Assembly (NCBI RefSeq): GCF_000015805.1
Contig: NC_009073.1
Span: 1,350,001-1,382,000 of the forward strand
Direction: 5' to 3'
Length of the DNA: 32,000 nucleotides
Source of the DNA: Pyrobaculum calidifontis JCM 11548
GTDB taxonomy: Archaea; Thermoproteota; Thermoprotei; Thermoproteales; Thermoproteaceae
Below the pieces are notes generated by a model that worked only from the letters and a program-made list of their open reading frames with translations, had not been told where the DNA came from and searched no databases. This document shows positions 11,554 through 31,043 of the stretch, in pieces. Both the position numbers and the translations under genes were made by a program. Positions within the stretch are counted from its first letter, which is position 1. Every line of letters begins with the position of its first letter.

Positions 11554-12948
11554 TCAGCCTGCGCAACAGGAGAGTTTTGTCACATCTTTGTAGAAGGCCA
11601 GCGCGGCTAGTCTGGCGGCTTCGCCGAAGGTGGGAAACGCGGGTATCATATCAGCAATGTCGTCCACCGTTAGGCCGTGGGCCACCGCCATGGCGAAGAT
11701 GTGTATCAGCTCCTCTGCCTGCGGCGCGGCGGCCACCGCGCCGGCTATTTTCCCGCCGCGCATGGAGATGCGCCACGTCTGGGGGTAGGTGTTTATCTTT
11801 ATGAAGCCGTCCAGGCGCCCGGAGGCCCACGCGGCGGCCACCGCGGATACGGGGGCCAGCCGGCAGACGCAACCCACTCCGCTTTTCAACATGTCCTCCT
11901 CCCTCATCCCCACGGAGGCCACGGGTGGGTCTGTGAAGACGACGCGGGGGACGTGCAGTGGGTTAAACCTGGCGTCGCCCCCTAGCGCGTTTATGGCCGC
12001 CACCACGCCCTGCCTCGCCGCGGCGTTTTCTAGATATCTCCCGCCGGGCAGTCCCCCCGTGACGTCCCCCGCCGCATATACTCCGGGGAGGCTGGTCTCC
12101 ATCCTCTCGTTCACCTTCACCGAGCCCTCCGGGTTCAGCTCCACGAGCCCCCCGGCTGCCTCTGAGTTCGGCCTTCTCCCAGCGGCGATGAAGAGAGCCT
12201 CTCCCCTCGCCCTAGACCCCTCCCGCCCCACCACCTCCACGCCGCCGTCCACGCGCCGCACTGCCACAGCCTCGTCGTGTATCACCTCGACCCCCTCCTC
12301 CCTCAGCACCTCCTCCACGAAGTGGGACGCCACCTCCTCCTCGTACTTCAACAGTCTGCCCCTCGTGAATATGGCGGTCTTAACCCCCAGCCTGTTGAGG
12401 GCTTGGGCCAGCTCCACGGACACGGCGCCGCCGCCTATGAACACCACGCTGGAGGGCTCCCCAAGCTCAAACAAGCTCTCGTTGGTGTAGTACCTCACCT
12501 CCTCCAGCCCCTTTATCGCCGGGACGGCGGGCCTGGCCCCCGTGGCTATCAACACCCGCCTGGCCTCTATCGTCCTATCCCCCACCTTTACCGCGTTGGC
12601 AGAGGCGAGAACGCCGAAGCCCTCAACGTAGTCTATGCCGTAGTACTCCAGGAGGTCTATGTACTTCTCCTGCCTAAGCCTCTCCACCACGCCGGCGGCG
12701 CCCCTCAAGAGGTCCCCAAGGCGGACCTCCACCGTTGCCTTGACGCCGGGGTAGTACCCCATCTTCGCCCTGTGGACAACCTCAGCCGCCTTGGCCAAGT
12801 ACTTGGTGGGGACACACCCCACGTTGACACAGGTCCCCCCGGGGGGCAGGCCGGCGTTAACCATGACCACCTTGGCGCCCAGCTCAGCCGCCTTTATAGC
12901 CGCGGCAAAGCCCGCGGAGCCTCCCCCCAAGACGCAGAGGTCGTACAC
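11554..12948 (-). CDS. merA: Mercuric reductase-type class I pyridine nucleotide-disulfide oxidoreductase (core MerA, no NmerA domain)
   Basis: GGGSAG FAD motif. Redox centre GGTCVNVGCVPTK. C-terminal KLSCCAG vicinal Cys pair characteristic of MerA. Confidence 0.7.
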   Translation of the reverse strand: MYDLCVLGGGSAGFAAAIKAAELGAKVVMVNAGLPPGGTCVNVGCVPTKYLAKAAEVVHRAKMGYYPGVKATVEVRLGDLLRGAAGVVERLRQEKYIDLLEYYGIDYVEGFGVLASANAVKVGDRTIEARRVLIATGARPAVPAIKGLEEVRYYTNESLFELGEPSSVVFIGGGAVSVELAQALNRLGVKTAIFTRGRLLKYEEEVASHFVEEVLREEGVEVIHDEAVAVRRVDGGVEVVGREGSRARGEALFIAAGRRPNSEAAGGLVELNPEGSVKVNERMETSLPGVYAAGDVTGGLPGGRYLENAAARQGVVAAINALGGDARFNPLHVPRVVFTDPPVASVGMREEDMLKSGVGCVCRLAPVSAVAAAWASGRLDGFIKINTYPQTWRISMRGGKIAGAVAAAPQAEELIHIFAMAVAHGLTVDDIADMIPAFPTFGEAARLAALAFYKDVTKLSCCAG

Positions 12949-20251: not shown

Positions 20252-21436
20252 GTGGCCCAGAGGCTGTACCTCCTAACCATATTCGCCCTATCTGCGGCCC
20301 TCTTGTACATGCAGTTTGCGCCTTCTGGCGGAGAAGTGGGCGACGACTTGTACATAGTGGTGGGGGGAAATCCCCCCTCGGTGGCAGTTTTCAACGGCAG
20401 CAAGTTCCTAGGGGGGTCTTACCTCTACGACGCAGATCCCTACTTCCCCATGTACGACAGCTTTCTATACGGGGACTTCCTCCTGGTGTTCCAAGGCGAG
20501 GCGGGCTCCATAATCTACATCTACAACATCTCCGACTTTAAGAAAGTGTATGGCACAGTGCACGCCCCAAGCAATGTGAGCCACCTCCTCTACGGGGAGC
20601 TTGGGCTGGCCCCCCTGGTGGGCTCCACGTTGTACATAGCGGTGTCCAACTTCGCCGAGAAGCGAGGCTACGTATGCGCGCTGGATTTAGACGCGCTTCT
20701 GCTCAAGGAGTGCATAAGCGTTGGGATGTACCCCCACGCCCCCATAAAGGTGGGCGACGTGGTGGTGGCTCCGACAATTAGGGAGCCGAGGCTGGTCTTT
20801 TACAGCCCCTCCAATGGCTCTCTAAGGGTTATATCGCCGCGGTACGACTGGCCCATATTCGTCAATACCCACGACGTGTTGAGATACACCCAGCTCTCCT
20901 TCCACATGATTACCACAGACGGTCGGTACATATACGGCGAGGGGCACTTGGTGGAGCCTGGCACAAGGTTCGCGGTGGGGGTGCACTCCCACGCCCTTGT
21001 GGTGGCCATGGACTTGAGCGGGAGAGTTGTGTCGGTGGCTCCCACCAACGCCCCGCCGCCCGGCCTCCCCGGCCTCGCCGTGTGCAACGGCAAGCTCTAC
21101 GCCACCTCGCCAGTGGAGGGGCTAGTGTACGTATTTGAAGTCCCCTCGCTGAAGCTGGTAAAGACCATTAAGACGGGGGGCGTTCCGTGGGGCGCCTTTG
21201 CCAACCCCAAGTGTACGGCGGTCTATGTCACAGACATCGTAGGGGGGAGAGTGCTCGTGATTGACGTTAGGAGAGACGAAGTGGCAAAGGTAGTGAAGAC
21301 CCCCATGCTCTGGCCACACACCGTCATCTTTGTGGACAAGGAGGTAGTGGAGAAGATGGACATACAGCCCGAGGTCAAGTTCAAGCCCTTGGAGATACCG
21401 CCCTATCTCTACTGCGGCGATGCTCCCCCCAGTTGA
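20252..21436 (+). CDS. Signal-anchored YVTN-type beta-propeller repeat protein
   Basis: GTG start 24 nt after TATA tttataaa (20225-20232). Hydrophobic N-terminus LYLLTIFALSAALLY. Repeats such as LYATSPVEGLVYVFEVPSLKLVKTIKTGGVPWGAF and AVYVTDIVGGRVLVIDVRRDEV. Confidence 0.55.
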   Translation: MAQRLYLLTIFALSAALLYMQFAPSGGEVGDDLYIVVGGNPPSVAVFNGSKFLGGSYLYDADPYFPMYDSFLYGDFLLVFQGEAGSIIYIYNISDFKKVYGTVHAPSNVSHLLYGELGLAPLVGSTLYIAVSNFAEKRGYVCALDLDALLLKECISVGMYPHAPIKVGDVVVAPTIREPRLVFYSPSNGSLRVISPRYDWPIFVNTHDVLRYTQLSFHMITTDGRYIYGEGHLVEPGTRFAVGVHSHALVVAMDLSGRVVSVAPTNAPPPGLPGLAVCNGKLYATSPVEGLVYVFEVPSLKLVKTIKTGGVPWGAFANPKCTAVYVTDIVGGRVLVIDVRRDEVAKVVKTPMLWPHTVIFVDKEVVEKMDIQPEVKFKPLEIPPYLYCGDAPPS

Positions 21437-22178
21437 GCCCGCCTTGTTGATTACGCTTGGCGCGCTGGGCGGCGCGGCGGCCTTTGCCCACTTGGCCTCG
21501 CCCAAGTGGGCGGCTTTTGCGGGAGGGGTTGTTTTACACATGGCGCTAGTCCAAGCGTTTCTAGCGGCGTCTTTCGTCAAATCCCTCGCCGTAGTGGCCC
21601 CAGTGAACTTAATCCCCTTGTTCATCCTCGGCGTATTTACCACATCTGCGGCATTCATGCTGGGGGTAATCGCAACAATAAAGTGGGGGGAGAGGCACCT
21701 CTACCTCCCTCTGGCCCTCTCAGCGGCTCTTTTGGCAAACAAGGCCCCCGCCGTAGAGGCGCTTCAAACATACGGCGTAGACGTCACCTATCTGGGCTAT
21801 GTGGCATACGGCATGCTCCTAGCCGCCTCCGCCTCTGCCGTCTCCCACAACCTAGCACTTAGGCTGCCCTCCGCCTACCCCCTCGCCTTTGCGGTCGCCG
21901 CGCTTTTAGGCAACTTAGCCTACGCCGCAACCCCCAACCTCCTATACTCCGAGGGCCTCCTCTACTACATGTTCACCACGGCCAACCTCTACTCTTTCAA
22001 CTCGGCTATGATGGTGTACCTAGGCTTTAGAAACAACGTGGCGGCCTTGGGCAAAATGGGCGGCTTTAAGTCCACCAAGTTTTGGCTCTACCTCCTCCTT
22101 GGAAACCTCGCTTACGGCCTTGTGGAAGTGTTATTCATGATTAAGAACCCACAGGTTCACGACCTTTTACACAGATGA
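21420..22178 (+). CDS. Integral membrane protein (~8 predicted TM helices), unknown family
   Basis: Hydrophobic throughout. Its stop overlaps the start of the Tat-flavoprotein gene (ATGA). The true start is uncertain. Confidence 0.5.
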   Translation: MLPPVEPALLITLGALGGAAAFAHLASPKWAAFAGGVVLHMALVQAFLAASFVKSLAVVAPVNLIPLFILGVFTTSAAFMLGVIATIKWGERHLYLPLALSAALLANKAPAVEALQTYGVDVTYLGYVAYGMLLAASASAVSHNLALRLPSAYPLAFAVAALLGNLAYAATPNLLYSEGLLYYMFTTANLYSFNSAMMVYLGFRNNVAALGKMGGFKSTKFWLYLLLGNLAYGLVEVLFMIKNPQVHDLLHR

Positions 22179-23374
22179 AGAGGCGCGACCTCCTAAAGCT
22201 CGCCCCCTTGCCCCTCTTAGCCGCGTTGTTGCCCCTAATCTGGCCCAGGGGGCGCCCGGGGGCAGACGTCAAGGCTAAGGTCTTGGTGGTTGGGAAAGGC
22301 ATTGCCGGCAGCATGGTGAAAATGATCTTAGACAGCCACGGTGTGGGGGCCACGGTGCTTGAGTGTTCAGACGCGGCTCTGCCCGGGCCTGGGAAAGTGG
22401 ACGTGGCCCTGGGGCTCGCCGACGCGGGAGACCTCCTAGTCCACTTAGGCGTCGGCGGCGGCGTGGTGAAGACCTGCGCCACGGGCATAGACCCCGACAA
22501 CCGCCTCGTCTACACAGACACCAGGGTGTACTCCTACGACATCCTCTTCTTGACGCCGGGCGTGGTCTTCGACTACGGCGCAGTGGAGGTCAAGGGCAGA
22601 GTGGACAACTTTACCCCCTACGAGTTAGGCTCGGCGCTGGCCAAGAGGGAGCTGAGCGCCGGGCGCTACGTGATTGTACACCCCAATTTGCCCTACCGGT
22701 GCACCTCGGCGCCCTACGAGTTCGCCCTCCTCCTAGACTGGAGACTTAGGGAGGAGGGGAAGCCCCACAGCGTCACCATAATCTCGCAGGTGGGGAAGAT
22801 CCCGGCCGTCTTTGAAAAATATATCTCACAGATGGGGGAGCTCGTGTGGAAAATACTGGAGGAGAGGGGTGTCGAGTACATAAACGCCGAGGTAGAGCTC
22901 GTGGATGGGGAAAACAAGGTGGTGCACCTCTCCACTGGGGAGAAGGTTCCCTTCGACTACCTCACCTTAGTGCCCCCCAATAAGGCTCCTAGGTTTATCT
23001 CAGCTGTGTCAAACGCCGAGGGGTTCTACGTGGAGGTAGACGAAAGGATGAGGCACCCCAAGTACAGAGATATCTACGTGGCGGGAGACGCGGTTTGGCA
23101 CGTGGTTAAGACAGGATGGGCCGCGGCCACCGAGGCCGCCATAGCCGCCGCGTGGGCGCTCGAGGACTTAGGCATAAGCGTGGAGAAGCCCAAGGAGATA
23201 TACAGCGAAGATGCTATAAGGATAACCCCAGACCTGGGGATTAGGGGGGCGAAGAGGTGGTACCCAATATACGGCGATGTTTACTGGCGGCAGATAGAGG
23301 GCCCAAGCCCAGAGGTCGTGGAGGCGAAGAAAAAAACAATAGAGTTCTTCCGACAGTTGCTAAAATACTACTAG
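22175..23374 (+). CDS. Tat-signal SQR/flavocytochrome-c-sulfide-dehydrogenase (FccB)-like flavoprotein
   Basis: MKRRDLLKLAPLPLLAALL twin-arginine signal. VLVVGKGIAGS FAD motif. PYRCTSAPYEF conserved-Cys context and YVAGDA motif. Confidence 0.7.
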   Translation: MKRRDLLKLAPLPLLAALLPLIWPRGRPGADVKAKVLVVGKGIAGSMVKMILDSHGVGATVLECSDAALPGPGKVDVALGLADAGDLLVHLGVGGGVVKTCATGIDPDNRLVYTDTRVYSYDILFLTPGVVFDYGAVEVKGRVDNFTPYELGSALAKRELSAGRYVIVHPNLPYRCTSAPYEFALLLDWRLREEGKPHSVTIISQVGKIPAVFEKYISQMGELVWKILEERGVEYINAEVELVDGENKVVHLSTGEKVPFDYLTLVPPNKAPRFISAVSNAEGFYVEVDERMRHPKYRDIYVAGDAVWHVVKTGWAAATEAAIAAAWALEDLGISVEKPKEIYSEDAIRITPDLGIRGAKRWYPIYGDVYWRQIEGPSPEVVEAKKKTIEFFRQLLKYY

Positions 23375-23731
23375 TCTGTCCACTTCCTCCAGGAAGGTGT
23401 ACATTGAGGTGACCTTGTCCACAAGCGCGGGGTCATACTCCTCCTCGGAGATTCCAAAGATCTTGCTGGCCGTTTCGCAGACGTATACCTTGACGCTCCC
23501 TATGGACTTCGCTGTAGAGAGCAGGGACTTCCAATCCACGCCCAACTCCACGATTCTCTTGTGCTCTGGCGAGGATAGGGGAGGGGCGTACTCTTTTTTA
23601 AACGCCTTGACAGCCTCCCCGGTGACGAATATGCTAACCTCCTCGCCCCTGGCCACCAGCGTAGACACAAGCGTGGCAAATTCGTACAGTCTCACAAAGT
23701 CGCCGCTCCCCACTATGATTCCAAAGGCCAT
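23360..23731 (-). CDS. dsrE: DsrE3-type DsrE/DsrF-like sulfur carrier protein
   Basis: ORF-track 23360..23755 trimmed to the ATG at 23731 (MAFGIIVGSGD). VKVYVCETASKIFGI Cys motif. TAATG junction with the upstream tusA. Confidence 0.75.
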   Translation of the reverse strand: MAFGIIVGSGDFVRLYEFATLVSTLVARGEEVSIFVTGEAVKAFKKEYAPPLSSPEHKRIVELGVDWKSLLSTAKSIGSVKVYVCETASKIFGISEEEYDPALVDKVTSMYTFLEEVDRLVVF

Positions 23732-23979
23732 TACCTCTCTATCACAATGCGCCAAACGCCCTTCTCAGGCATGTCCATGGCGACGACTTTGCTACCGTTT
23801 CTCTCAGCCACAGACTTTATATTGTCGCAGGAGGGAGGGTTGTCTGTGTACACCACCAGGACCTCACCCTTCTTAATGCTCTTAAGCGCCTGTGCCGTAT
23901 ACATCTGGGGGTAGGGGCACACAAAGCCCTTTAAATCTAGCTCGTACTTCCCATCCCCAATCTTCTTCAAGCTGGGCAT
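23731..23979 (-). CDS. tusA: TusA-like sulfurtransferase (two-Cys subtype)
   Basis: ATG at 23979 (MPSLKK...). LDLKGFVCPYPQ plus TDNPPSCDNI. Paralog of 17470..17715. GGAATAA-TATA promoter at 24001-24018. Confidence 0.8.
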   Translation of the reverse strand: MPSLKKIGDGKYELDLKGFVCPYPQMYTAQALKSIKKGEVLVVYTDNPPSCDNIKSVAERNGSKVVAMDMPEKGVWRIVIER

Positions 23980-24000
23980 GCCGACCCCCATTTTGCACAA

Positions 24001-24018
24001 TTTTAATCATTATTCCAC
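24001..24018 (-). promoter_or_regulatory. GGAATAA-box plus TATA promoter of the tusA-dsrE3 pair
   Basis: Minus strand reads GTGGAATAATGATTAAAA. TATA is ~25 nt upstream of the ATG at 23979. Confidence 0.55.
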
Positions 24019-24186
24019 AGCTTGTAAAAAATATTCTCAATCACCTAGTTAACAACACTTAAAGCCAAATCTGACAGACAATGCCATGATAACCTGCGCA
24101 CATGTAGATAGACGAAGGGCAAAACGTATTAATGTGCAAAAAATTCACATAGATAAAAGAAAATATGTAAAAATAGAGGCGGGACT

Positions 24187-25209
24187 ATGGCGGAGTTAGG
24201 GCTGGGAGTCCCCACGCCGAGGAAGTACTGGATCGCTTTGGGTCTTGTGGTAGGCGTAGTGGTGGGGCTGGTAATTGGCTACTATTTAAACGCGGCCACG
24301 CTTCAGTACGCCTATAGGTTGCTTGAATCTGCTCAACAGCCTCCTCCCGACGTATACGTCGTGGCCCTCTCTCCTAAGGGTGCGGCGTTTTTCCTAACCG
24401 CCATGGGCACGCCCATAACCACTGCGCAGTGGAGCGGCGGGGCGGCGAGGGTGGCCGGGGCCTATAGGGACATGTATATAGCCTACGACGGGGACCGGGG
24501 AAAAATCTTCCAGATAACCCAGGGCCTTGAGATTAAGAACGTGGTGTATATTGATGGCCTTGTGGGAGTGTACCTAGACGAAAAGGGCGGCTACATATAT
24601 GCCTTGTCTAGAGATAAACTGTATAAGATATCGGCGGATACTCTTGACATAGTTAAATCGGTGGAAGTGCCCAACGGCGTGTATATCGCCGGCGTAAACG
24701 AGCCTTCGACAGTGGTGTACGTGCTGACGGAGAGGTCCCTCGTCAAATTCGACGGAGATTTAAACAAGTTGGGAGAGGTGGCCGTCTCGGGCAAGTCGTT
24801 GTTTGTTGGAGTGCTCTACTTCTTCGTCGGCGGCGACGGCTTTGTAAAATCCTTTGACAAATCTAATAGGCAGATAGCCGAGGTTAAATTGGATGGCGGC
24901 GTGTCTCAACTCTTGGCCTGCCGCGGGATACTGCTTGCTTCCACAGACGGCGGCGTATATGCGGTGTCTATACCAGATCTAAGAGTTATAAAGAGACTAG
25001 ACGCGAGGGGCATTTTGTATGCTGACCCCACTTGCAGTGTAGTATACGCAGTGGAGGACTCCAAGGCCACCGTGATACTGATACCGTCTTTAAACACGCA
25101 TGTGGTCAATCTGCCGGAGCCCCTCGACGGCTTGATATTTAGAACGGGCGCCGGCGCCGCGCTGGGCGGAGGAGCCGCGAGAAAAGTGGCCCTGGCCTGC
25201 GGAGGGTAG
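24187..25209 (+). CDS. Membrane-anchored beta-propeller-like protein
   Basis: N-terminal TM segment YWIALGLVVGVVVGLVIGYYL, then repeated strand blocks (GGYIYALSRDKLYKISADTLDIVKSVEV, GGVYAVSIPDLRVIKRL, VVYAVEDSKATVILIPSL). Confidence 0.5.
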   Translation: MAELGLGVPTPRKYWIALGLVVGVVVGLVIGYYLNAATLQYAYRLLESAQQPPPDVYVVALSPKGAAFFLTAMGTPITTAQWSGGAARVAGAYRDMYIAYDGDRGKIFQITQGLEIKNVVYIDGLVGVYLDEKGGYIYALSRDKLYKISADTLDIVKSVEVPNGVYIAGVNEPSTVVYVLTERSLVKFDGDLNKLGEVAVSGKSLFVGVLYFFVGGDGFVKSFDKSNRQIAEVKLDGGVSQLLACRGILLASTDGGVYAVSIPDLRVIKRLDARGILYADPTCSVVYAVEDSKATVILIPSLNTHVVNLPEPLDGLIFRTGAGAALGGGAARKVALACGG

Positions 25210-25211
25210 CC

Positions 25212-26558
25212 ATGAGGGCGGCAACTATACTCATAGCCGTCTTGGTCGTGGCCCTGGTGATACTTGCGGCGTTATACACCTCGGCCACACAAGAGTTGGC
25301 CTCTGCCCGGGGAGAGGTTGAAAAGGCTAAGCAGGAGGCGGCGCAGGCAAGTAAACAGGCTGAGGAGCTTAGGGGGCAGTTGACCCAGCTTCAGAACAGG
25401 CTGAACGAGCTACAGTCGAGGCTAGCCGAGGCTCAGAAGACCATAGAAGCGCTGAGGGGACAAGCGCAACCCATTGCTGGCTACATGTACGCCCTTGTGG
25501 TTGACACTGTAGGCGGTAGCGACGAGTTGTTTATATATGTGATCGACCCCCGCACCAACGACCTCGTCGTCAAAATACCTCTAAGAGATAGACTGCCAGC
25601 AGACGTATATACGCTTATGAGAAACGCCTCACTGAGGCTTGTCTCCCCCTCCACGCTAGAGGTCTGGATGCCGCGGTATTATACGCAGCCGGGGCAGTAC
25701 CTCTATATCCTATACGAGGGGCCGTGGGGGTCCTATGTGGCGGCCCTAGATCCCAAGGACTTCTCCTTGGTGAAGAACGTGAAGATCTACGACAAGTACA
25801 CTAGACAGTACGGCGGCATATCGCCTGATGGGAAGCTCCTAGTGGTTGCGCAACGCCAGGCGCAACAGATAGTCTACCTAGACGCCAAGACTTTGGATGT
25901 GATAAGAGCGGTGAAGACTGACGCCAATCCGTGCGACGTGGCGCCTTCGCCCGACGGAAACTACTTCGCCATTCCTGTGAGGGCCGACGGGGCAGAGGGC
26001 AAGCCTGAATACGTTTTGATCATCGACCGGGAGGGGAGGGAGGTGGCGCGCGCCTACTTTAGAAGGCCTGGCGAGGCTGGGCCTCCCACGGAGCCCTCCA
26101 TGACCTACTGGACGCTCGACGGGAAATATGTATTACTGCAGGGGGAGGCTAGGCCCTATGAGGCAGTGGTGGAGGTGGACGTTGCGGCTAAGTCGGCGAG
26201 AATTGTAAAGGAGGTGAGCTACCCCTCTGGCACCGTGGCGTTTATGGCTGAGGAGCATCCCATGGCCAAGGGCGAGGTCTGGGTGGTGGTGAGAGGTGCG
26301 GGGGTCTATGTCAGATCGCCGCCGCCAGAGTACAGGGAAATCACGCGCGTTGCCACGGCTATAGACGTTAAGGGCATTGTACAAGGCGCATTTAGCCCAG
26401 ATGGGCGCTATTTCTACGTCGTGGGATCTGGCGGCATAGATGTAATTGACGTGGCGGCTAAGTCCGTGGTAAAGACTATAAAGGCTAAGTCGGCTGTGTG
26501 GATCATTGCAATACCCAGCGGCGAGTGGCTATACTATAGCGGAGTGTTGAGAGGGTGA
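25212..26558 (+). CDS. Membrane-anchored coiled-coil plus YVTN-type beta-propeller protein
   Basis: TM segment ILIAVLVVALVILAALY. About 60 aa of coiled coil (EKAKQEAAQASKQAEELRGQLTQLQNRLNELQSRLAEAQ). YVTN-like repeats ISPDGKLLVVAQ...IVYLDAKTLDVIRAVKT, PSPDGNYFAIPV, FSPDGRYFYVVGSGGIDVIDVAAKSVVKTI. Confidence 0.6.
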   Translation: MRAATILIAVLVVALVILAALYTSATQELASARGEVEKAKQEAAQASKQAEELRGQLTQLQNRLNELQSRLAEAQKTIEALRGQAQPIAGYMYALVVDTVGGSDELFIYVIDPRTNDLVVKIPLRDRLPADVYTLMRNASLRLVSPSTLEVWMPRYYTQPGQYLYILYEGPWGSYVAALDPKDFSLVKNVKIYDKYTRQYGGISPDGKLLVVAQRQAQQIVYLDAKTLDVIRAVKTDANPCDVAPSPDGNYFAIPVRADGAEGKPEYVLIIDREGREVARAYFRRPGEAGPPTEPSMTYWTLDGKYVLLQGEARPYEAVVEVDVAAKSARIVKEVSYPSGTVAFMAEEHPMAKGEVWVVVRGAGVYVRSPPPEYREITRVATAIDVKGIVQGAFSPDGRYFYVVGSGGIDVIDVAAKSVVKTIKAKSAVWIIAIPSGEWLYYSGVLRG

Positions 26559-27805
26559 CCATGTCGAGGGTAAAGGACTTCTTGGTAAAGCCCTGGCGGC
26601 CTGAGGTGGCTGGGCTGGTCATCGGCATTGTAGCCTCTCTTCAGATACTTGTGATTAGATCGCCGTGGTATATCACAGGCCCCGAGACTCAGTTCGGCGG
26701 CTGGCTCCTCAAGACTTTGACTCTAGGCGCCGTGAAGGTGGATCTGTGGGACTACTTCAACCCAAGCTCCCCCATGTTTGTGGCAAAGGCCCTGGGGCCG
26801 CTGGAGAACCCCGGCTTTCAAATAGTGCTCGGCTTCATGCTGGGGGCCGCGATAGCCAAGGCGCTCCAGGGCGCGTGGCGTCTCCGGTGGCCCGCCAACT
26901 GGGGTGTGGTGATTACGTCGATTATCGGGGGCTTGCTCTTGGGCTTCGGCGCCAGGCTCGCCCTGGGTTGCAACGTGGGGAACTTCTTCGCCACCGTGCA
27001 GAGCCTTGTGTTCTCCGGCTTCGTCTTCTTCCTCGGCATGGCCATGGGGACATACGTAGCCACGTTCCTCATAGAGACGTGGCTCATGGATAGAATAGCC
27101 AAGACGAGACCCATTAGGATATCCATCGGAGGCAACGTAGACAATCGCAAGGTCTTGGCCACGGCTGTGGCTATAACGGCGGCTCTATCTCTATACTGGT
27201 GGCAAATAGGCGTGATGGCAGGCCTTCTCTATCTGCTGTTCGGGGTGGCGTACGGCTTCGCGGGGGCGAAGGCGGATATATGCTTTACCTCCATGTTGAG
27301 AGACGGCTTCTGGAGCCGGCTGGCCCCCTACGGCGCAAACGCCAGGGCCGTGGCCATAGCCCTCTCCATAACCATAACGGCGAACTTAGTGCTCAAATAC
27401 GGCGTCGGCTACAGCTACAGCGAGTTTCTATTCCCAGTGGGCATTCACACGTTGCTTGGCGGCTTCCTATTCGGCATAGGCATGGTCCTAGTGGCTGGGT
27501 GTAGCTTCAGCTCCGCGTATAGAAGCGGCGAGGGGAGCATACCGCACTTAATCGCATGGATATTCATGATAATCGGGATGACGCTCTTGGCATATGTATG
27601 GCCCTTCTTCTACACTACTGCCGTGGCCCTTAGCCCAGTGTTAACACTGCCCGAGATGCTCCACGGCAATGTGGCCGCCGCGGCGGCCCTCGGCTACCTC
27701 TTCTGCCTATTCCTAGCCCTCTACCCAAGTATCCGCGACGGCACTATACAACTAAGCCAATTAAACATAAAACTGCCAAAGCTACTAATAACTAGGTCTA
27801 AATAA
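26555..27805 (+). CDS. YeeE/YedE-family membrane transporter (thiosulfate/sulfur-compound uptake family)
   Basis: Polytopic membrane protein with the family's Cys-containing helix motifs ARLALGCNVGNFF and VLVAGCSFSSAYRSGEG. 4-nt overlap with the preceding gene. Confidence 0.75.
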   Translation: MTMSRVKDFLVKPWRPEVAGLVIGIVASLQILVIRSPWYITGPETQFGGWLLKTLTLGAVKVDLWDYFNPSSPMFVAKALGPLENPGFQIVLGFMLGAAIAKALQGAWRLRWPANWGVVITSIIGGLLLGFGARLALGCNVGNFFATVQSLVFSGFVFFLGMAMGTYVATFLIETWLMDRIAKTRPIRISIGGNVDNRKVLATAVAITAALSLYWWQIGVMAGLLYLLFGVAYGFAGAKADICFTSMLRDGFWSRLAPYGANARAVAIALSITITANLVLKYGVGYSYSEFLFPVGIHTLLGGFLFGIGMVLVAGCSFSSAYRSGEGSIPHLIAWIFMIIGMTLLAYVWPFFYTTAVALSPVLTLPEMLHGNVAAAAALGYLFCLFLALYPSIRDGTIQLSQLNIKLPKLLITRSK

Positions 27806-28807: not shown

Positions 28808-29946
28808 GCGTAAGCAGACTTGAGAACTTGCAATAAGCCTTCGGCTACCGCAAGGTCTTTCACAGCAACTTCTTTTATGTAGTTCACCAGGGGCAGGAGA
28901 GTCCTCTTGACAGTCGACATGGCGGCAAGCCTGGCCGGCCCTCCCCCGGCCCTCTCCCCCTCCTCCTCAGCCACTGCAAACCACTTCTTCAGCAAGGCGG
29001 ACATCTCCAACTCCACCCACCTCCTCCTAAGGACTTCCTCGAGACGCGCCACTTCCTCTTCCACAATTTTCTCTGCCTTGGACACCTCCTCAGCCCTCTG
29101 CCTATTAAACTCCTCAGCCAACTCTCTCAAGTGGTCCAGCGTAACAACCTCCACTGGCAGATTCGGCGCAGTGTTGCGGGGCACGCCCAAGTCTACCACT
29201 AGCTTAACCCTAGAGCCGGGGGGCACGTACACGACTACGGGCTCGAAGGAGGAGACGGCCGTGTAGACTACGTCGAACTCCCTGAGGCACCACTCCACGT
29301 TTTCGCTTGTGAGAGGCCTCACCTCTACGCCCAGGTCGGCGGCCTTCTCCACAGTGCGATTAACCACAGCCACCCGCCTCACCCCTGCGTCTATGAGCTC
29401 TTTAACAACTCCGCGGCCCACTGCCCCAGCCCCTATGACGCATACCGAGATCTCCCGCAGTGGAAGACGGCGGCTTAGATACACAATTGAGAGAGAGCCG
29501 AGACCTCTGGGCCCTCTAGAGATCCCCGTCTCTGTCCTCACCCGCTTCCCCACAGCCACGGCCCTCTCTACCACGGTCTTGAGAAGACCTCTGAGATTCC
29601 CCCTCCTCACTTGCGACTCGTAGGCCTCCTCCAGCTGGCCCAAGACGTCTGTCTCGCCTATGAGCATGGACTCAAGGCCGGCGGCCACTCTAAACAAATG
29701 CCTCGCCGCCTCAACGCCTCTGAACTCCGCCACTTTTTCAACGTAGGGACCGTAAGACCGCTTAATGTGTTCCGCTGGGCCAGCGTCGGCGTCGTATAGG
29801 TACACCTCAACCCTGTTACACGTGTGAAAGACAAAGGCTTGGACGTTGTAACAGGTCTTGTGCACATTTCTGGAAATTTCGGACAGCTCGTCCACACTGA
29901 GTCGCTTATGCGAAAGCGATAAGGCGTACAACTTGTCTACAAGCAT
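28804..29946 (-). CDS. hemA: Glutamyl-tRNA reductase
   Basis: ORF-track 28804..30177 trimmed to the ATG at 29946 (MLVDKLYALSLSHK). HTCNRVEVY active-site Cys, GLESMLIGETDVLGQL, and NAD motif VIGAGAVG. Confidence 0.85.
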   Translation of the reverse strand: MLVDKLYALSLSHKRLSVDELSEISRNVHKTCYNVQAFVFHTCNRVEVYLYDADAGPAEHIKRSYGPYVEKVAEFRGVEAARHLFRVAAGLESMLIGETDVLGQLEEAYESQVRRGNLRGLLKTVVERAVAVGKRVRTETGISRGPRGLGSLSIVYLSRRLPLREISVCVIGAGAVGRGVVKELIDAGVRRVAVVNRTVEKAADLGVEVRPLTSENVEWCLREFDVVYTAVSSFEPVVVYVPPGSRVKLVVDLGVPRNTAPNLPVEVVTLDHLRELAEEFNRQRAEEVSKAEKIVEEEVARLEEVLRRRWVELEMSALLKKWFAVAEEEGERAGGGPARLAAMSTVKRTLLPLVNYIKEVAVKDLAVAEGLLQVLKSAYA

Positions 29947-31043
29947 AGCCCCAAGAAGTAGACCCCCGCCGCCACTGAGAGGACGCCGATTGCCACCTCG
30001 ACCCACCTCCCGCCTTTTATGTACTTCGCCACTCCCCGCACCACGGCGTATACGGCTGCGGCGAGGCCTAGGCCGTAGAGCAGAAGCGCGGCAAAGAGGG
30101 CGAGGTAGTTCCCGGCAAGCGACGCCAGCGCCACCACTGTGGCAAACCCGGCGTAGGGGAGAATACAGGGAGTCCACACAGCGCCTAGAGAAAAGCCGAA
30201 GAGGAAGTCGCCGGCAGAGCCAAGCCGCTTAAAGGCGAAAGTCTGCAACCTAGAGACAGCGGCGGCGTATTTGACGCTCAGCCTCTCCACGAGGAGGACA
30301 GCCCCCAGCAGTAGCAGAGCCACCCCGCCCACCGCGAGAAAGACCTGCCTAGCATACGCAACTGCGCCTCCCACCGCCGCCACAGCCACGCCAACGGCGG
30401 CGTAGGACAAGACCATCCCCAGAAGCACCTTGGGCAAACTCCGCCGCGCAAAATGTGTCACGGCGGCGACGCCTAGCACTGGGAGAACGCAGGGAGAAAA
30501 CGCGCTGGCGACGCCTAGCACAAACGCAGACAGCAAAGCGGCATACGGGAAGGCGTCGCCGCCCTCTTGCACGCCCTTGGGAGAGAGAAATTCCACAAAC
30601 ACACGCTTTAGGTCAACCCCAGGAGGCACGTCCGCCCCCGTCCAAAAGCCCAGTAGCCTAATCCTCCCGCCCTCCGCCACCCCTATTACCACCGTGGGCG
30701 TGCCCGGGATTAAAAAAGTCCTCTCACCCCTAACCACGTAGTATTTCACAACCCCGTGATCCACATACGCCACCTGCCCATCCACCACTACGTCAATGCC
30801 GCTTATACGCGCCCTAGATAAATCAAGGGTGTAGAGGCTGTACTTCGACATTAAGGCGGCGACTTCCCCATCTGAGAAAAGCGCCTCAAGCCTCTTACAC
30901 TCCTCACACCCAGGCTGGTATATGTACAGCAGGAAGGTGCCGTTGACCTCGTAAGGCGACTCCACCTCTTGAAACACGAGAAGGCCCTTCTGCAGAGCTA
31001 AGGCCAAAGCGGCGAGAACTAAGACGAGCAGTACCTGCCTCAT
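29937..31043 (-). CDS. ccdA: Thioredoxin-like domain fused to CcdA/DsbD-type thiol:disulfide transmembrane electron transporter
   Basis: Signal peptide. QPGCEECK CxxC thioredoxin-like domain. Membrane domain with SPCVLP and TPCILP, the paired Cys motifs of CcdA/DsbD. Confidence 0.7.
   Translation of the reverse strand: MRQVLLVLVLAALALALQKGLLVFQEVESPYEVNGTFLLYIYQPGCEECKRLEALFSDGEVAALMSKYSLYTLDLSRARISGIDVVVDGQVAYVDHGVVKYYVVRGERTFLIPGTPTVVIGVAEGGRIRLLGFWTGADVPPGVDLKRVFVEFLSPKGVQEGGDAFPYAALLSAFVLGVASAFSPCVLPVLGVAAVTHFARRSLPKVLLGMVLSYAAVGVAVAAVGGAVAYARQVFLAVGGVALLLLGAVLLVERLSVKYAAAVSRLQTFAFKRLGSAGDFLFGFSLGAVWTPCILPYAGFATVVALASLAGNYLALFAALLLYGLGLAAAVYAVVRGVAKYIKGGRWVEVAIGVLSVAAGVYFLGLCL

Follow-up and report, generated by a model that had tools for sequence, protein, structure and literature searches.

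Within a 32,000-nucleotide stretch of Pyrobaculum calidifontis JCM 11548 (contig NC_009073.1, forward strand, positions 1,350,001 to 1,382,000; hereafter the window), a gene for a YeeE/YedE-family channel directly follows two genes for membrane-anchored beta-propeller proteins. A preliminary description of this DNA treated the three genes as the unit, with the propellers suggested as a surface-exposed apparatus that feeds sulfur compounds, for example, to the channel. The observation stands, and the interpretation is only partly supported. The unit is eight genes rather than three, adding a third propeller, a polytopic membrane protein, a flavoprotein and proteins of the DsrE and TusA families (Table 1). 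We call the propellers P1, P2 and Prop3, the 252-residue membrane protein Mem252 and the flavoprotein Flavo, and we give related loci L-numbers.

Table 1. The eight-gene module of the window and its candidate promoter spacer, in window positions
Feature	Position	Strand	Description
Prop3	20252..21436	+	394 amino acids; ABO08890, annotated 'YncE family'; N-terminal signal or anchor, YVTN-like beta-propeller
Mem252	21420..22178	+	252 amino acids; polytopic membrane protein
Flavo	22175..23374	+	399 amino acids; ABO08892; Tat-signal FccB/SQR-like FAD flavoprotein
DsrE-family sulfurtransferase-like	23360..23731	-	longest open reading frame 23360-23755; probable start Met9, from ortholog starts
TusA/YedF-like sulfur carrier	23731..23979	-	longest open reading frame 23731-24000; probable start Met8, as in orthologs
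TusA/P1 divergent promoter spacer (candidate)	23980..24186	.	A/T-rich
P1	24187..25209	+	340 amino acids; ABO08895, annotated 'hypothetical'; type-II membrane protein, beta-propeller
P2	25212..26558	+	448 amino acids; ABO08896, annotated 'hypothetical'; anchored YVTN beta-propeller on helical stalk
YeeE/YedE-family channel, YedE-like	26555..27805	+	416 amino acids; ABO08897, annotated 'YeeE/YedE family protein'

The three open reading frames (ORFs) first described lie on the forward strand, tightly packed, as the ORF list and the letters at their junctions confirm. The TAG stop of P1 (25207-25209) is followed by 'cc' and the ATG of P2 at 25212, a gap of 2 nt, and GTGA at 26555-26558 joins the TGA of P2 to the GTG start of YeeE, an overlap of 4 nt. 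NCBI starts YeeE at the ATG at 26561, which gives 414 amino acids and a 2-nt gap to P2; packing is tight under either start. The divergent TusA and DsrE genes and the A/T-rich spacer are likewise as described, with one qualification: the quoted 186 bp holds from the longest TusA ORF, and the spacer measures 207 bp (64% A+T) from Met8.

We found related loci through the contigs of P2 homologs and mapped all window proteins onto them by tblastn. The linkage of propellers to YeeE is not peculiar to this genome. Clusters of P1, P2 and YeeE orthologs also occur in P. ferrireducens, P. aerophilum, P. oguniense and T. uzoniensis, in two metagenome-assembled genomes (MAGs) and in seven metagenome contigs. 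Moreover, all eight genes occur together in every locus that contains P1 or P2 and has enough flanking sequence (∼15 loci, two genera); L001, L002, L004, L005, L028, L029, L034-L037 and L041 carry the full set, and L039 and L040 part of it. The YeeE orthologs are 65-67% identical in all loci. A scan of genome contigs with a P2 alignment returned only P. oguniense and ∼22 weak YVTN matches. On the distribution of these homologs, the eight-gene module is restricted to the Thermoproteaceae (Pyrobaculum/Thermoproteus). Beyond the eight genes, nothing is co-conserved across the related loci, and the flanks differ completely.

The genes keep company in at least three orders. The commonest, order A (at least 10 loci), reads Prop3←YeeE←DsrE←TusA / P1→P2→Mem252→Flavo. 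Order B, in P. oguniense, reads Prop3←YeeE←P1 / TusA→DsrE→P2→Mem252→Flavo and is a single inversion of A. The window has order C, Prop3→Mem252→Flavo→ ←DsrE←TusA / P1→P2→YeeE. YeeE adjoins at least one propeller gene in each of them, Prop3 in A and B and P2 in C. The proposal that YeeE is co-operonic with propellers instead of with its TusA partner does not survive this comparison: the common order places YeeE in the TusA-DsrE operon, followed by Prop3, and makes P1 and P2 co-operonic with Mem252 and Flavo. The proposed contrast with systems that pair YeeE with TusA therefore stems from a rearrangement specific to P. calidifontis. The persistence of eight genes through repeated rearrangement, amid unrelated flanks, argues strongly for a functional module.

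At some loci the module is changing or eroding. In the window the convergent Flavo and DsrE genes share their last 15 nt (23360-23374), a junction born of the window-specific rearrangement. Two near-identical relatives of the window strain, both from JGI 3300005799 (L031, 2-2465; L032, 2-1870), carry the orders YeeE→P2→CBS and P2→37-residue YeeE remnant→CBS. Their P2 is only 78-84% identical, against 92-96% for the flanking YeeE and CBS genes; by these identities P2 either evolves much faster than its neighbours or is being swapped, and rearrangement of the locus is under way among strains. In L030 (4559-9575) P1 is deleted and YeeE and Flavo are truncated, so that the module appears to decay as a unit. 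P1 is fragmented and Mem252 split in L033 (2-4229), P1 and P2 each map as two separate tblastn pieces in L041 (8001-10302), and in P. aerophilum (L003/L004, 8048-9236) Flavo has a frameshift (L004) or is absent, PaREP2 genes following directly after the gap (L003). Some of these decayed copies (L030, L033, L003/L004, L041) may be assembly indels.

The core of the module is a channel with two cytoplasmic sulfur-transfer proteins. Membership of the channel in the YeeE/YedE family, with its GCNVG and AGCSFSS motifs, is confirmed by its match to Pfam PF04143 (Sulf_transp; 144.6 bits against a cutoff of 27, E = 6.6e-42). The cysteines C243 (27281-27283), C316 of AGCSFSS (27500-27502) and C139 of GCNVG (26969-26971) align with the functional cysteines C22, C91 and C293 of S. 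thermophila YeeE (StYeeE). The solved StYeeE fusion chain shows Ala at position 22, which we take to be the C22A mutant. The halves of the channel are swapped relative to S. thermophila YeeE/TsuA, residues 81-202 corresponding to 236-351 of the S. thermophila protein and residues 227-341 to 6-116, as if PmpA-like and PmpB-like halves had been fused independently or in permuted order. The channel is collinear with the NCBIfam YedE/FdhT model NF033796 (residues 9-377 on 2-363 of 387, E = 1.4e-48), at a score of 166 bits that falls below the cutoff of 350. It matches the TsuA models NF041049 and NF052577 over residues 85-173 only, far beneath their cutoffs (56.2 against 645 and 88.4 against 400 bits), and does not qualify as a member.

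The two small proteins point the same way. TusA matches Pfam PF01206 (70.3 bits against a cutoff of 28.6, E = 1.2e-19) and has its active-site cysteine in VCPYP, kept in orthologs. Its best NCBIfam match is YedF PRK11018 (5.8e-14; 51.5 bits, under the cutoff of 79), and among PDB entries E. coli YedF (1JE3, 1.1e-9) ranks first, before StYeeD and TusA. DsrE, which the preliminary description named DsrE3, matches at family level Pfam PF02635 (37.7 bits against 22.7, E = 2.5e-9); its best PDB match is 2QS7 of S. solfataricus (2.7e-9), with the conserved cysteine of VYVCET aligned. Judged by these profile and structure matches, the channel, TusA and DsrE belong with YedE/YedF and not with TsuA/TsuB. 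In the YedF associated with selenium, one chain joins a SirA/TusA domain to a DsrE domain (PMC5322559). The TusA and DsrE genes correspond to the two domains of this TIGR03527-type YedF, and the core therefore reads as a YedE-like channel with a split YedF.

P1 is, as it had been described, a single-span membrane-anchored protein resembling a propeller. Hydropathy gives one transmembrane-like segment (residues 16-34) preceded by Arg/Lys. The AlphaFold2 model (mean predicted local distance difference test (pLDDT) score 74.6) has an N-terminal helix and ∼28 beta-strands in a roughly seven-bladed propeller, and Foldseek searches of the PDB with this model return beta-propellers only, with no specific functional match. 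P1 has no match to the repeat profile TIGR02276 and is a propeller by structure only. An exhaustive HMMER search of 1.84 billion proteins yielded seven full-length cluster representatives as the P1 family; word-indexed searches had found one protein with a single query and four with an alignment, so HMMER was needed to size the family.

The most distinctive feature of P1 is its end. Residues 320-340 (25144-25206) form a Gly/Ala-rich tail with pLDDT below 50 that finishes R-K-V-A-L-A-C-G-G-COOH, the cysteine being Cys338 (25198-25200). The ending R-[QK]-[IV]-A-L-A-C-G(-G)-stop is present in 16/16 loci, the Gly/Ala-rich stretch before it varies, and every family member, divergent ones included, ends [AS]CG(G)-COOH. 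There are exactly three cysteines in each, the other two being the internal, invariant Cys245 and Cys283. The tail recalls the sulfur-carrying arm of SoxY, which has the motifs VTIGGC / GGCGG-COOH (PMC11237559). The resemblance of ALACG(G)-COOH on a low-pLDDT tail lies in position and Gly context only. P1 has no Pfam or NCBIfam SoxY match, its fold is a beta-propeller, and no SoxZ-like gene is present in the module. P1 is not a SoxY homolog, so the likeness is one of design and P1 is an analogue at most.

P2 has the single transmembrane anchor, helical stalk and YVTN propeller first ascribed to it, on the combined evidence of hydropathy, model, repeat profile and Foldseek. The transmembrane-like segment covers residues 3-21, the helix is continuous from residue 2 to 84 in the model, and the two together take up residues 1-88 (25212-25475). 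P2 passes the TIGR02276 YVTN repeat cutoff (36.1 against 27.85 bits), and its model (pLDDT 83.9) finds the archaeal S-layer YVTN propeller 1L0Q as top Foldseek match (E = 4e-15). The length of the stalk differs among orthologs. There is exactly one cysteine in 18/18 family members, the invariant Cys241 (25932-25934) of DANPCDxAPSPDG. Profile-profile comparison detects no sequence kinship of P2 to P1 or Prop3 (hhalign probability 3-7%).

Prop3 falls just under the TIGR02276 cutoff (25.2 bits against 27.85, E = 1.2e-5), and its profile matches 1L0Q at 1.5e-15. Orthologs, 48-53% identical, are present in all loci. Profile-profile comparison identifies Prop3 and P1 as distant paralogs (hhalign probability 86%, E = 4.9e-6), in a match that spans two internal cysteine motifs, ACRG and DPxC[ST]xVY. 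It too has a C-terminal cysteine tail, [AYS]CGD..P(PS), in 12/12 complete genes. All five of its cysteines are invariant. Indeed, the three propeller families have no spare cysteines: every cysteine in P1, P2 and Prop3 is invariant.

By its sequence signature, Flavo is the only recognisable redox enzyme of the module. It begins with a twin-arginine translocation (Tat) motif, M-K-R-R-D-L-L-K (22175-22198), whose arginine pair is invariant. The domains are Pfam Pyr_redox_2 and FCSD_central, NCBIfam reports SQR type III (1e-22), and profile searches of the PDB return FccB (5N1T at 2.8e-22, aligned from the arginine pair of the signal on; 1FCD at 2.4e-20) and SQRs. The single invariant cysteine, Cys176 (22700-22702) in HPxLPYRCTSAPYE, aligns with Cys161 of FccB. 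The second catalytic cysteine of FccB, Cys337, is replaced in Flavo by the Glu of an invariant YSED, an assignment extrapolated two residues past the end of the alignment (FccB N335 = profile position 341). The position of Cys42, which links flavin adenine dinucleotide (FAD) in FccB, is Gly/Pro. No protein of the module contains CxxCH, so the module holds no cytochrome c partner.

Mem252 has at least five transmembrane-like segments and invariant residues that include H40, K54, E236 and H247; the window copy has no cysteine. We found no similarity of Mem252 to Pfam, NCBIfam or PDB entries even at E ≤ 10. Its gene directly precedes that of Flavo, with ends overlapping or abutting, in all loci and in every arrangement.

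Several indicators, taken together, support indirectly an outside location for the propellers. In each, K/R residues come before the one hydrophobic segment, which lies at the N-terminus. Prop3 contains 2-5 N-X-S/T sequons where ∼1 is expected; sequon counts set apart Prop3 only, not P1 or P2. This N-terminal charge and hydrophobicity, the Tat motif of Flavo, the Prop3 sequons and the S-layer type of YVTN fold are our grounds for placing the propellers at the outer face of the membrane. Of the 'surface-exposed' apparatus of the preliminary description, the extracytoplasmic side has this indirect support; exposure at the cell surface itself is doubtful. We estimate that the ∼66 helical residues of the P2 stalk reach ∼10 nm (0.15 nm per residue), and a recent preprint gives 37 nm as the height of the Pyrobaculum S-layer canopy over the membrane. 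At that reach the propellers would lie under the S-layer, a position that suits dissolved sulfide, polysulfide or thiosulfate better as substrate than sulfur in solid or colloidal form.

The surroundings of the module differ from locus to locus. Near L001 are genes for a rhodanese, a DsrE-like protein and a sulfite-oxidase-type Mo-domain protein. Extra FCSD/SQR-like flavoprotein genes, every one of them paired with a small gene that matches Pfam PF07849 (listed as 'HMP'; the pairs are also called FCSD-like/DUF1641), adjoin the module in T. uzoniensis (L002, 9282-12966), in P. aerophilum (L004, 11707-13299) and in L028 (12203-13785). By the predicted functions of these genes, the module is surrounded by sulfur metabolism in L001, in T. 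uzoniensis, in P. aerophilum and in L028.

Other candidates for membership were rejected because they are not co-conserved: a CBS protein, a 190-residue ORF, a pirin, a 268-residue ORF, HemA, a DsbD/CcdA-like protein and the genes of 108-110 codons that adjoin Flavo elsewhere. The DsbD/CcdA-like gene (29937-31043, reverse strand), 2 kb from the module in the window and unlinked to it in other genomes, encodes 368 residues that combine a signal sequence with a thioredoxin-like CEEC motif and a weakly matching DsbD/CcdA transmembrane domain. By analogy, this protein could send reducing power to extracytoplasmic cysteines; SoxV exports reducing power in Sox systems. We also set aside, as generic YVTN proteins, ∼22 MAG loci (L006-L027) whose propellers are 20-27% identical to P2 residues 176-430. 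No homologs of YeeE, TusA, DsrE or the flavoprotein were found near them. Many come from sulfur-oxidising Gammaproteobacteria (Thiohalobacter, Chromatiaceae, Thioalkalispiraceae).

The TusA/P1 spacers share [GA]TTAA[CT] palindromes, for example TGTTATTAAC and TGTTAACATGTTAACA. We compared the spacers of the window (23980-24186), L001 (4896-4970), L002 (4884-4975) and L004 (4885-4976). The palindromic hexamers of the window spacer, GTTAAC at 24048 and ATTAAT at 24128, both recur in orthologous spacers, which are 75-92 bp long in the other loci. Both GTTAAC sites in the ∼13 kb of L001 fall within its spacer, as do the sole GTTAAC and both ATTAAT sites in the ∼13 kb of L002. The palindromes are a candidate shared operator for the two divergent operons.

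What might such a module do? The reading that we favour, and hold with moderate confidence, is an extracytoplasmic sulfur-processing and import module, in which sulfur chemistry at the outer face would feed the YedE-like channel and, through it, cytoplasmic TusA and DsrE. Flavo, exported by the Tat pathway, would dock on Mem252, which would probably anchor it and pass its electrons to the quinone pool. At Cys176 and FAD, Flavo might oxidise sulfide or exchange sulfane sulfur. For want of a second catalytic cysteine it would, we infer, use the tail cysteines of P1 and/or Prop3, whose C-terminal arms could act as its partner or acceptor thiol. The sulfur would be carried as a protein persulfide, as it is by SoxY in bacteria. 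The propellers, held beneath the S-layer, would then hand it to the channel, where three cysteines may line the pore, and TusA followed by DsrE would take it up in the cytoplasm. There it might serve assimilation, detoxification or energy metabolism. A known pathway runs along these lines: the periplasmic Sox system, with the cysteine arm of SoxY, passes sulfur to the YeeE-like SoxT1A and on to cytoplasmic TusA/DsrE (PMC11582611, PMC5336275).

A bolder version, which we consider unlikely, makes P1 and Prop3 a new class of extracytoplasmic covalent sulfur carriers, each a propeller body with a cysteine arm that supplies the missing second cysteine of Flavo in trans. If true, it would amount to archaeal, Sox-independent sulfide oxidation beneath the S-layer, with protein-bound sulfane sulfur delivered to a YedE-like channel.

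A number of points weigh against the sulfur-import reading. It draws on sequence and predicted structures. The predicted topology comes from hydropathy, charge and the Tat signal of a partner. Flavo may not oxidise sulfide, since it lacks equivalents of Cys337 and Cys42 and a cytochrome c partner; the role of Mem252, which has no homology to anything, is a guess. The low confidence of the P1 tail need not mean flexibility, because the P1 model rests on only five sequences. The channel and TusA are nearest to the YedE/YedF associated with selenium. The disruption of Flavo in two P. aerophilum assemblies indicates that the module is dispensable. The hosts of the module are diverse in physiology; P. 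calidifontis itself grows as an aerobic heterotroph and is not known as a sulfur oxidiser. Finally, searches of the literature for the gene families, organisms and locus tags gave no mention of the genes or of their association, in keeping with the preliminary description, whose author knew of no account of propellers arranged with YeeE.

The first alternative leaves sulfur import to the channel, TusA and DsrE and makes the propellers non-catalytic: scaffolds, substrate-binding receptors, or factors that help the channel or Flavo to assemble and stay stable. Their cysteines would form structural disulfides or bind metal. The generic propellers that Foldseek returns include scaffolds (BamB, WD40) and maturation factors (NirF, NirN), which fits a passive role. 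So do the closest match of P2, an S-layer YVTN domain, and its stalk, which varies in length like a spacer. The internal C245 and C283 of P1 lie one blade apart and could pair. The tails are harder to accommodate. A lone invariant cysteine in an unstructured tail is in no position to join a structural disulfide inside the fold of its own protein, and it is kept in 16/16 P1 and 12/12 Prop3 sequences while the Gly/Ala-rich linker preceding it varies. The sole cysteine of P2 is also invariant, and Flavo is short of a second catalytic cysteine. On balance we regard passive propellers as somewhat unlikely.

MerA genes and the YedE/YedF character of the core raise another alternative, a module for selenium or for thiophilic metals or metalloids, Hg(II) among them, running from the cysteine tails through the YedE-like channel and thiol carriers to a reductase such as MerA. 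The window does encode a genuine MerA (11554-12948, reverse strand; 510 bits against a cutoff of 454) with active site C40/C45 and the ending LSCCAG-COOH, and its orthologs, 60-65% identical, lie 0.1-0.5 kb beyond Flavo in L004 (P. aerophilum) and L028. The channel and TusA are closest to YedE/YedF, a pair linked with selenium, and in M. maripaludis the transporter of selenium is a YedE-like protein. However, MerA adjoins the module in these two lineages only: L001, L002, L005, L029 and L039 do not show the adjacency, and in the window 7 kb lie between. The tails carry one cysteine each, where MerA and MerP use pairs, and known mer systems make no use of an FccB/SQR-like flavoprotein or of a DsrE, both of which fit sulfur better. 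At other loci the module has sulfur enzymes for neighbours, and SelD, and with it SelD-dependent selenium use, has been reported among archaea only in methanogens (PMC5322559). We give this alternative little credence.

Equally improbable, in our estimate, is a module that works outwards, with sulfane sulfur collected in the cytoplasm by DsrE/TusA, exported through the channel and disposed of outside, in detoxification or sulfur reduction. Sequence does not reveal which way transport runs, and the hosts include anaerobes that reduce S0 and thiosulfate. An exporter role has also been proposed for YedE (PMC5322559). Against this, the characterised family members (TsuA, SoxT1A and PmpAB-like proteins) import. 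A weak objection concerns the link to S0 respiration: P2 homologs named P. islandicum, P. neutrophilum or T. tenax did not appear in our protein search.

The last alternative, that the adjacency is incidental and the propellers have nothing to do with YeeE, can point to the lineage-specific P1-P2-YeeE operon of the window and to L031 and L032, which differ again; it is effectively refuted by eight genes that stay together through at least three orders, in ∼15 loci and two genera, with differing flanks.

The proposed sulfur-import module is part familiar, part new. Already known are its parts (the YedE-like channel, TusA, DsrE and an FccB-like flavoprotein) and the logic in which processing outside feeds a channel. 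New are the three propeller families, the cysteine tails, the one-cysteine flavoprotein with its membrane partner and the eight-gene architecture. The passage of sulfur across archaeal membranes, and its fate beneath the S-layer, are largely uncharted, and in bacteria Sox/SoxYZ→SoxT1A→TusA/DsrE is the sole route worked out. The module is a compact and testable candidate for an archaeal counterpart built of unrelated parts. It gives context to four protein families now annotated 'hypothetical' or generic 'YncE', and it offers two testable features, the C-terminal cysteine tail and a sulfide-dehydrogenase-like flavoprotein minus one catalytic cysteine. It would also mean that YedE/YedF-type systems occur outside selenium-using organisms.

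Several known systems resemble the module in part. As in the selenium-associated YedE/YedF systems (and YedE/YedF of E. coli), TusA/DsrE adjoin the channel gene in the common module order; here TusA and DsrE are separate genes, and scores fall under the curated cutoffs. SelD-dependent selenium use is not reported for Crenarchaeota, and we know of no YedE system with propeller or flavoprotein partners. With TsuA/TsuB (YeeE/YeeD; S. thermophila 6LEO, 8J4C) the module shares the Sulf_transp family, three functional cysteines and a TusA-like cytoplasmic partner. Unlike TsuA (∼330-350 residues), the window channel is permuted and ∼70 residues longer, and it has added extracytoplasmic partners.

Flavo shares with FccB/SoxF and SQR the Tat signal, the FAD-binding fold and P-[FY]-R-C-x-x-x-P-Y-E with the Cys161 equivalent, but it is always paired with polytopic Mem252 instead of a cytochrome c subunit. 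P2 and Prop3 have the fold and repeat type of 1L0Q, the S-layer YVTN protein of Methanosarcina mazei, and of YncE. They differ from these in the transmembrane helix, helical stalk and invariant DANPCDxAPSPDG of P2, in the five invariant cysteines and cysteine tail of Prop3, and in a gene context that is sulfur-related.

The closest parallel as a system is Sox/SoxYZ-SoxT1A-TusA/DsrE3 of Hyphomicrobium denitrificans (PMC11582611). The module contains no Sox protein; its outer parts are beta-propellers and a one-cysteine FccB-like flavoprotein, and no sHdr genes are adjacent. Its channel is YedE-like, with 414-416 residues and swapped halves, and its host is archaeal. The proposed logic is the same: processing outside, a channel with cysteines, and TusA and DsrE inside. 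The likeness may extend to the carrier: SoxY bears its cysteine at the end of a tail, the 'VTIGGC' arm, and in P1 and Prop3 too a tail cysteine would be the carrier.

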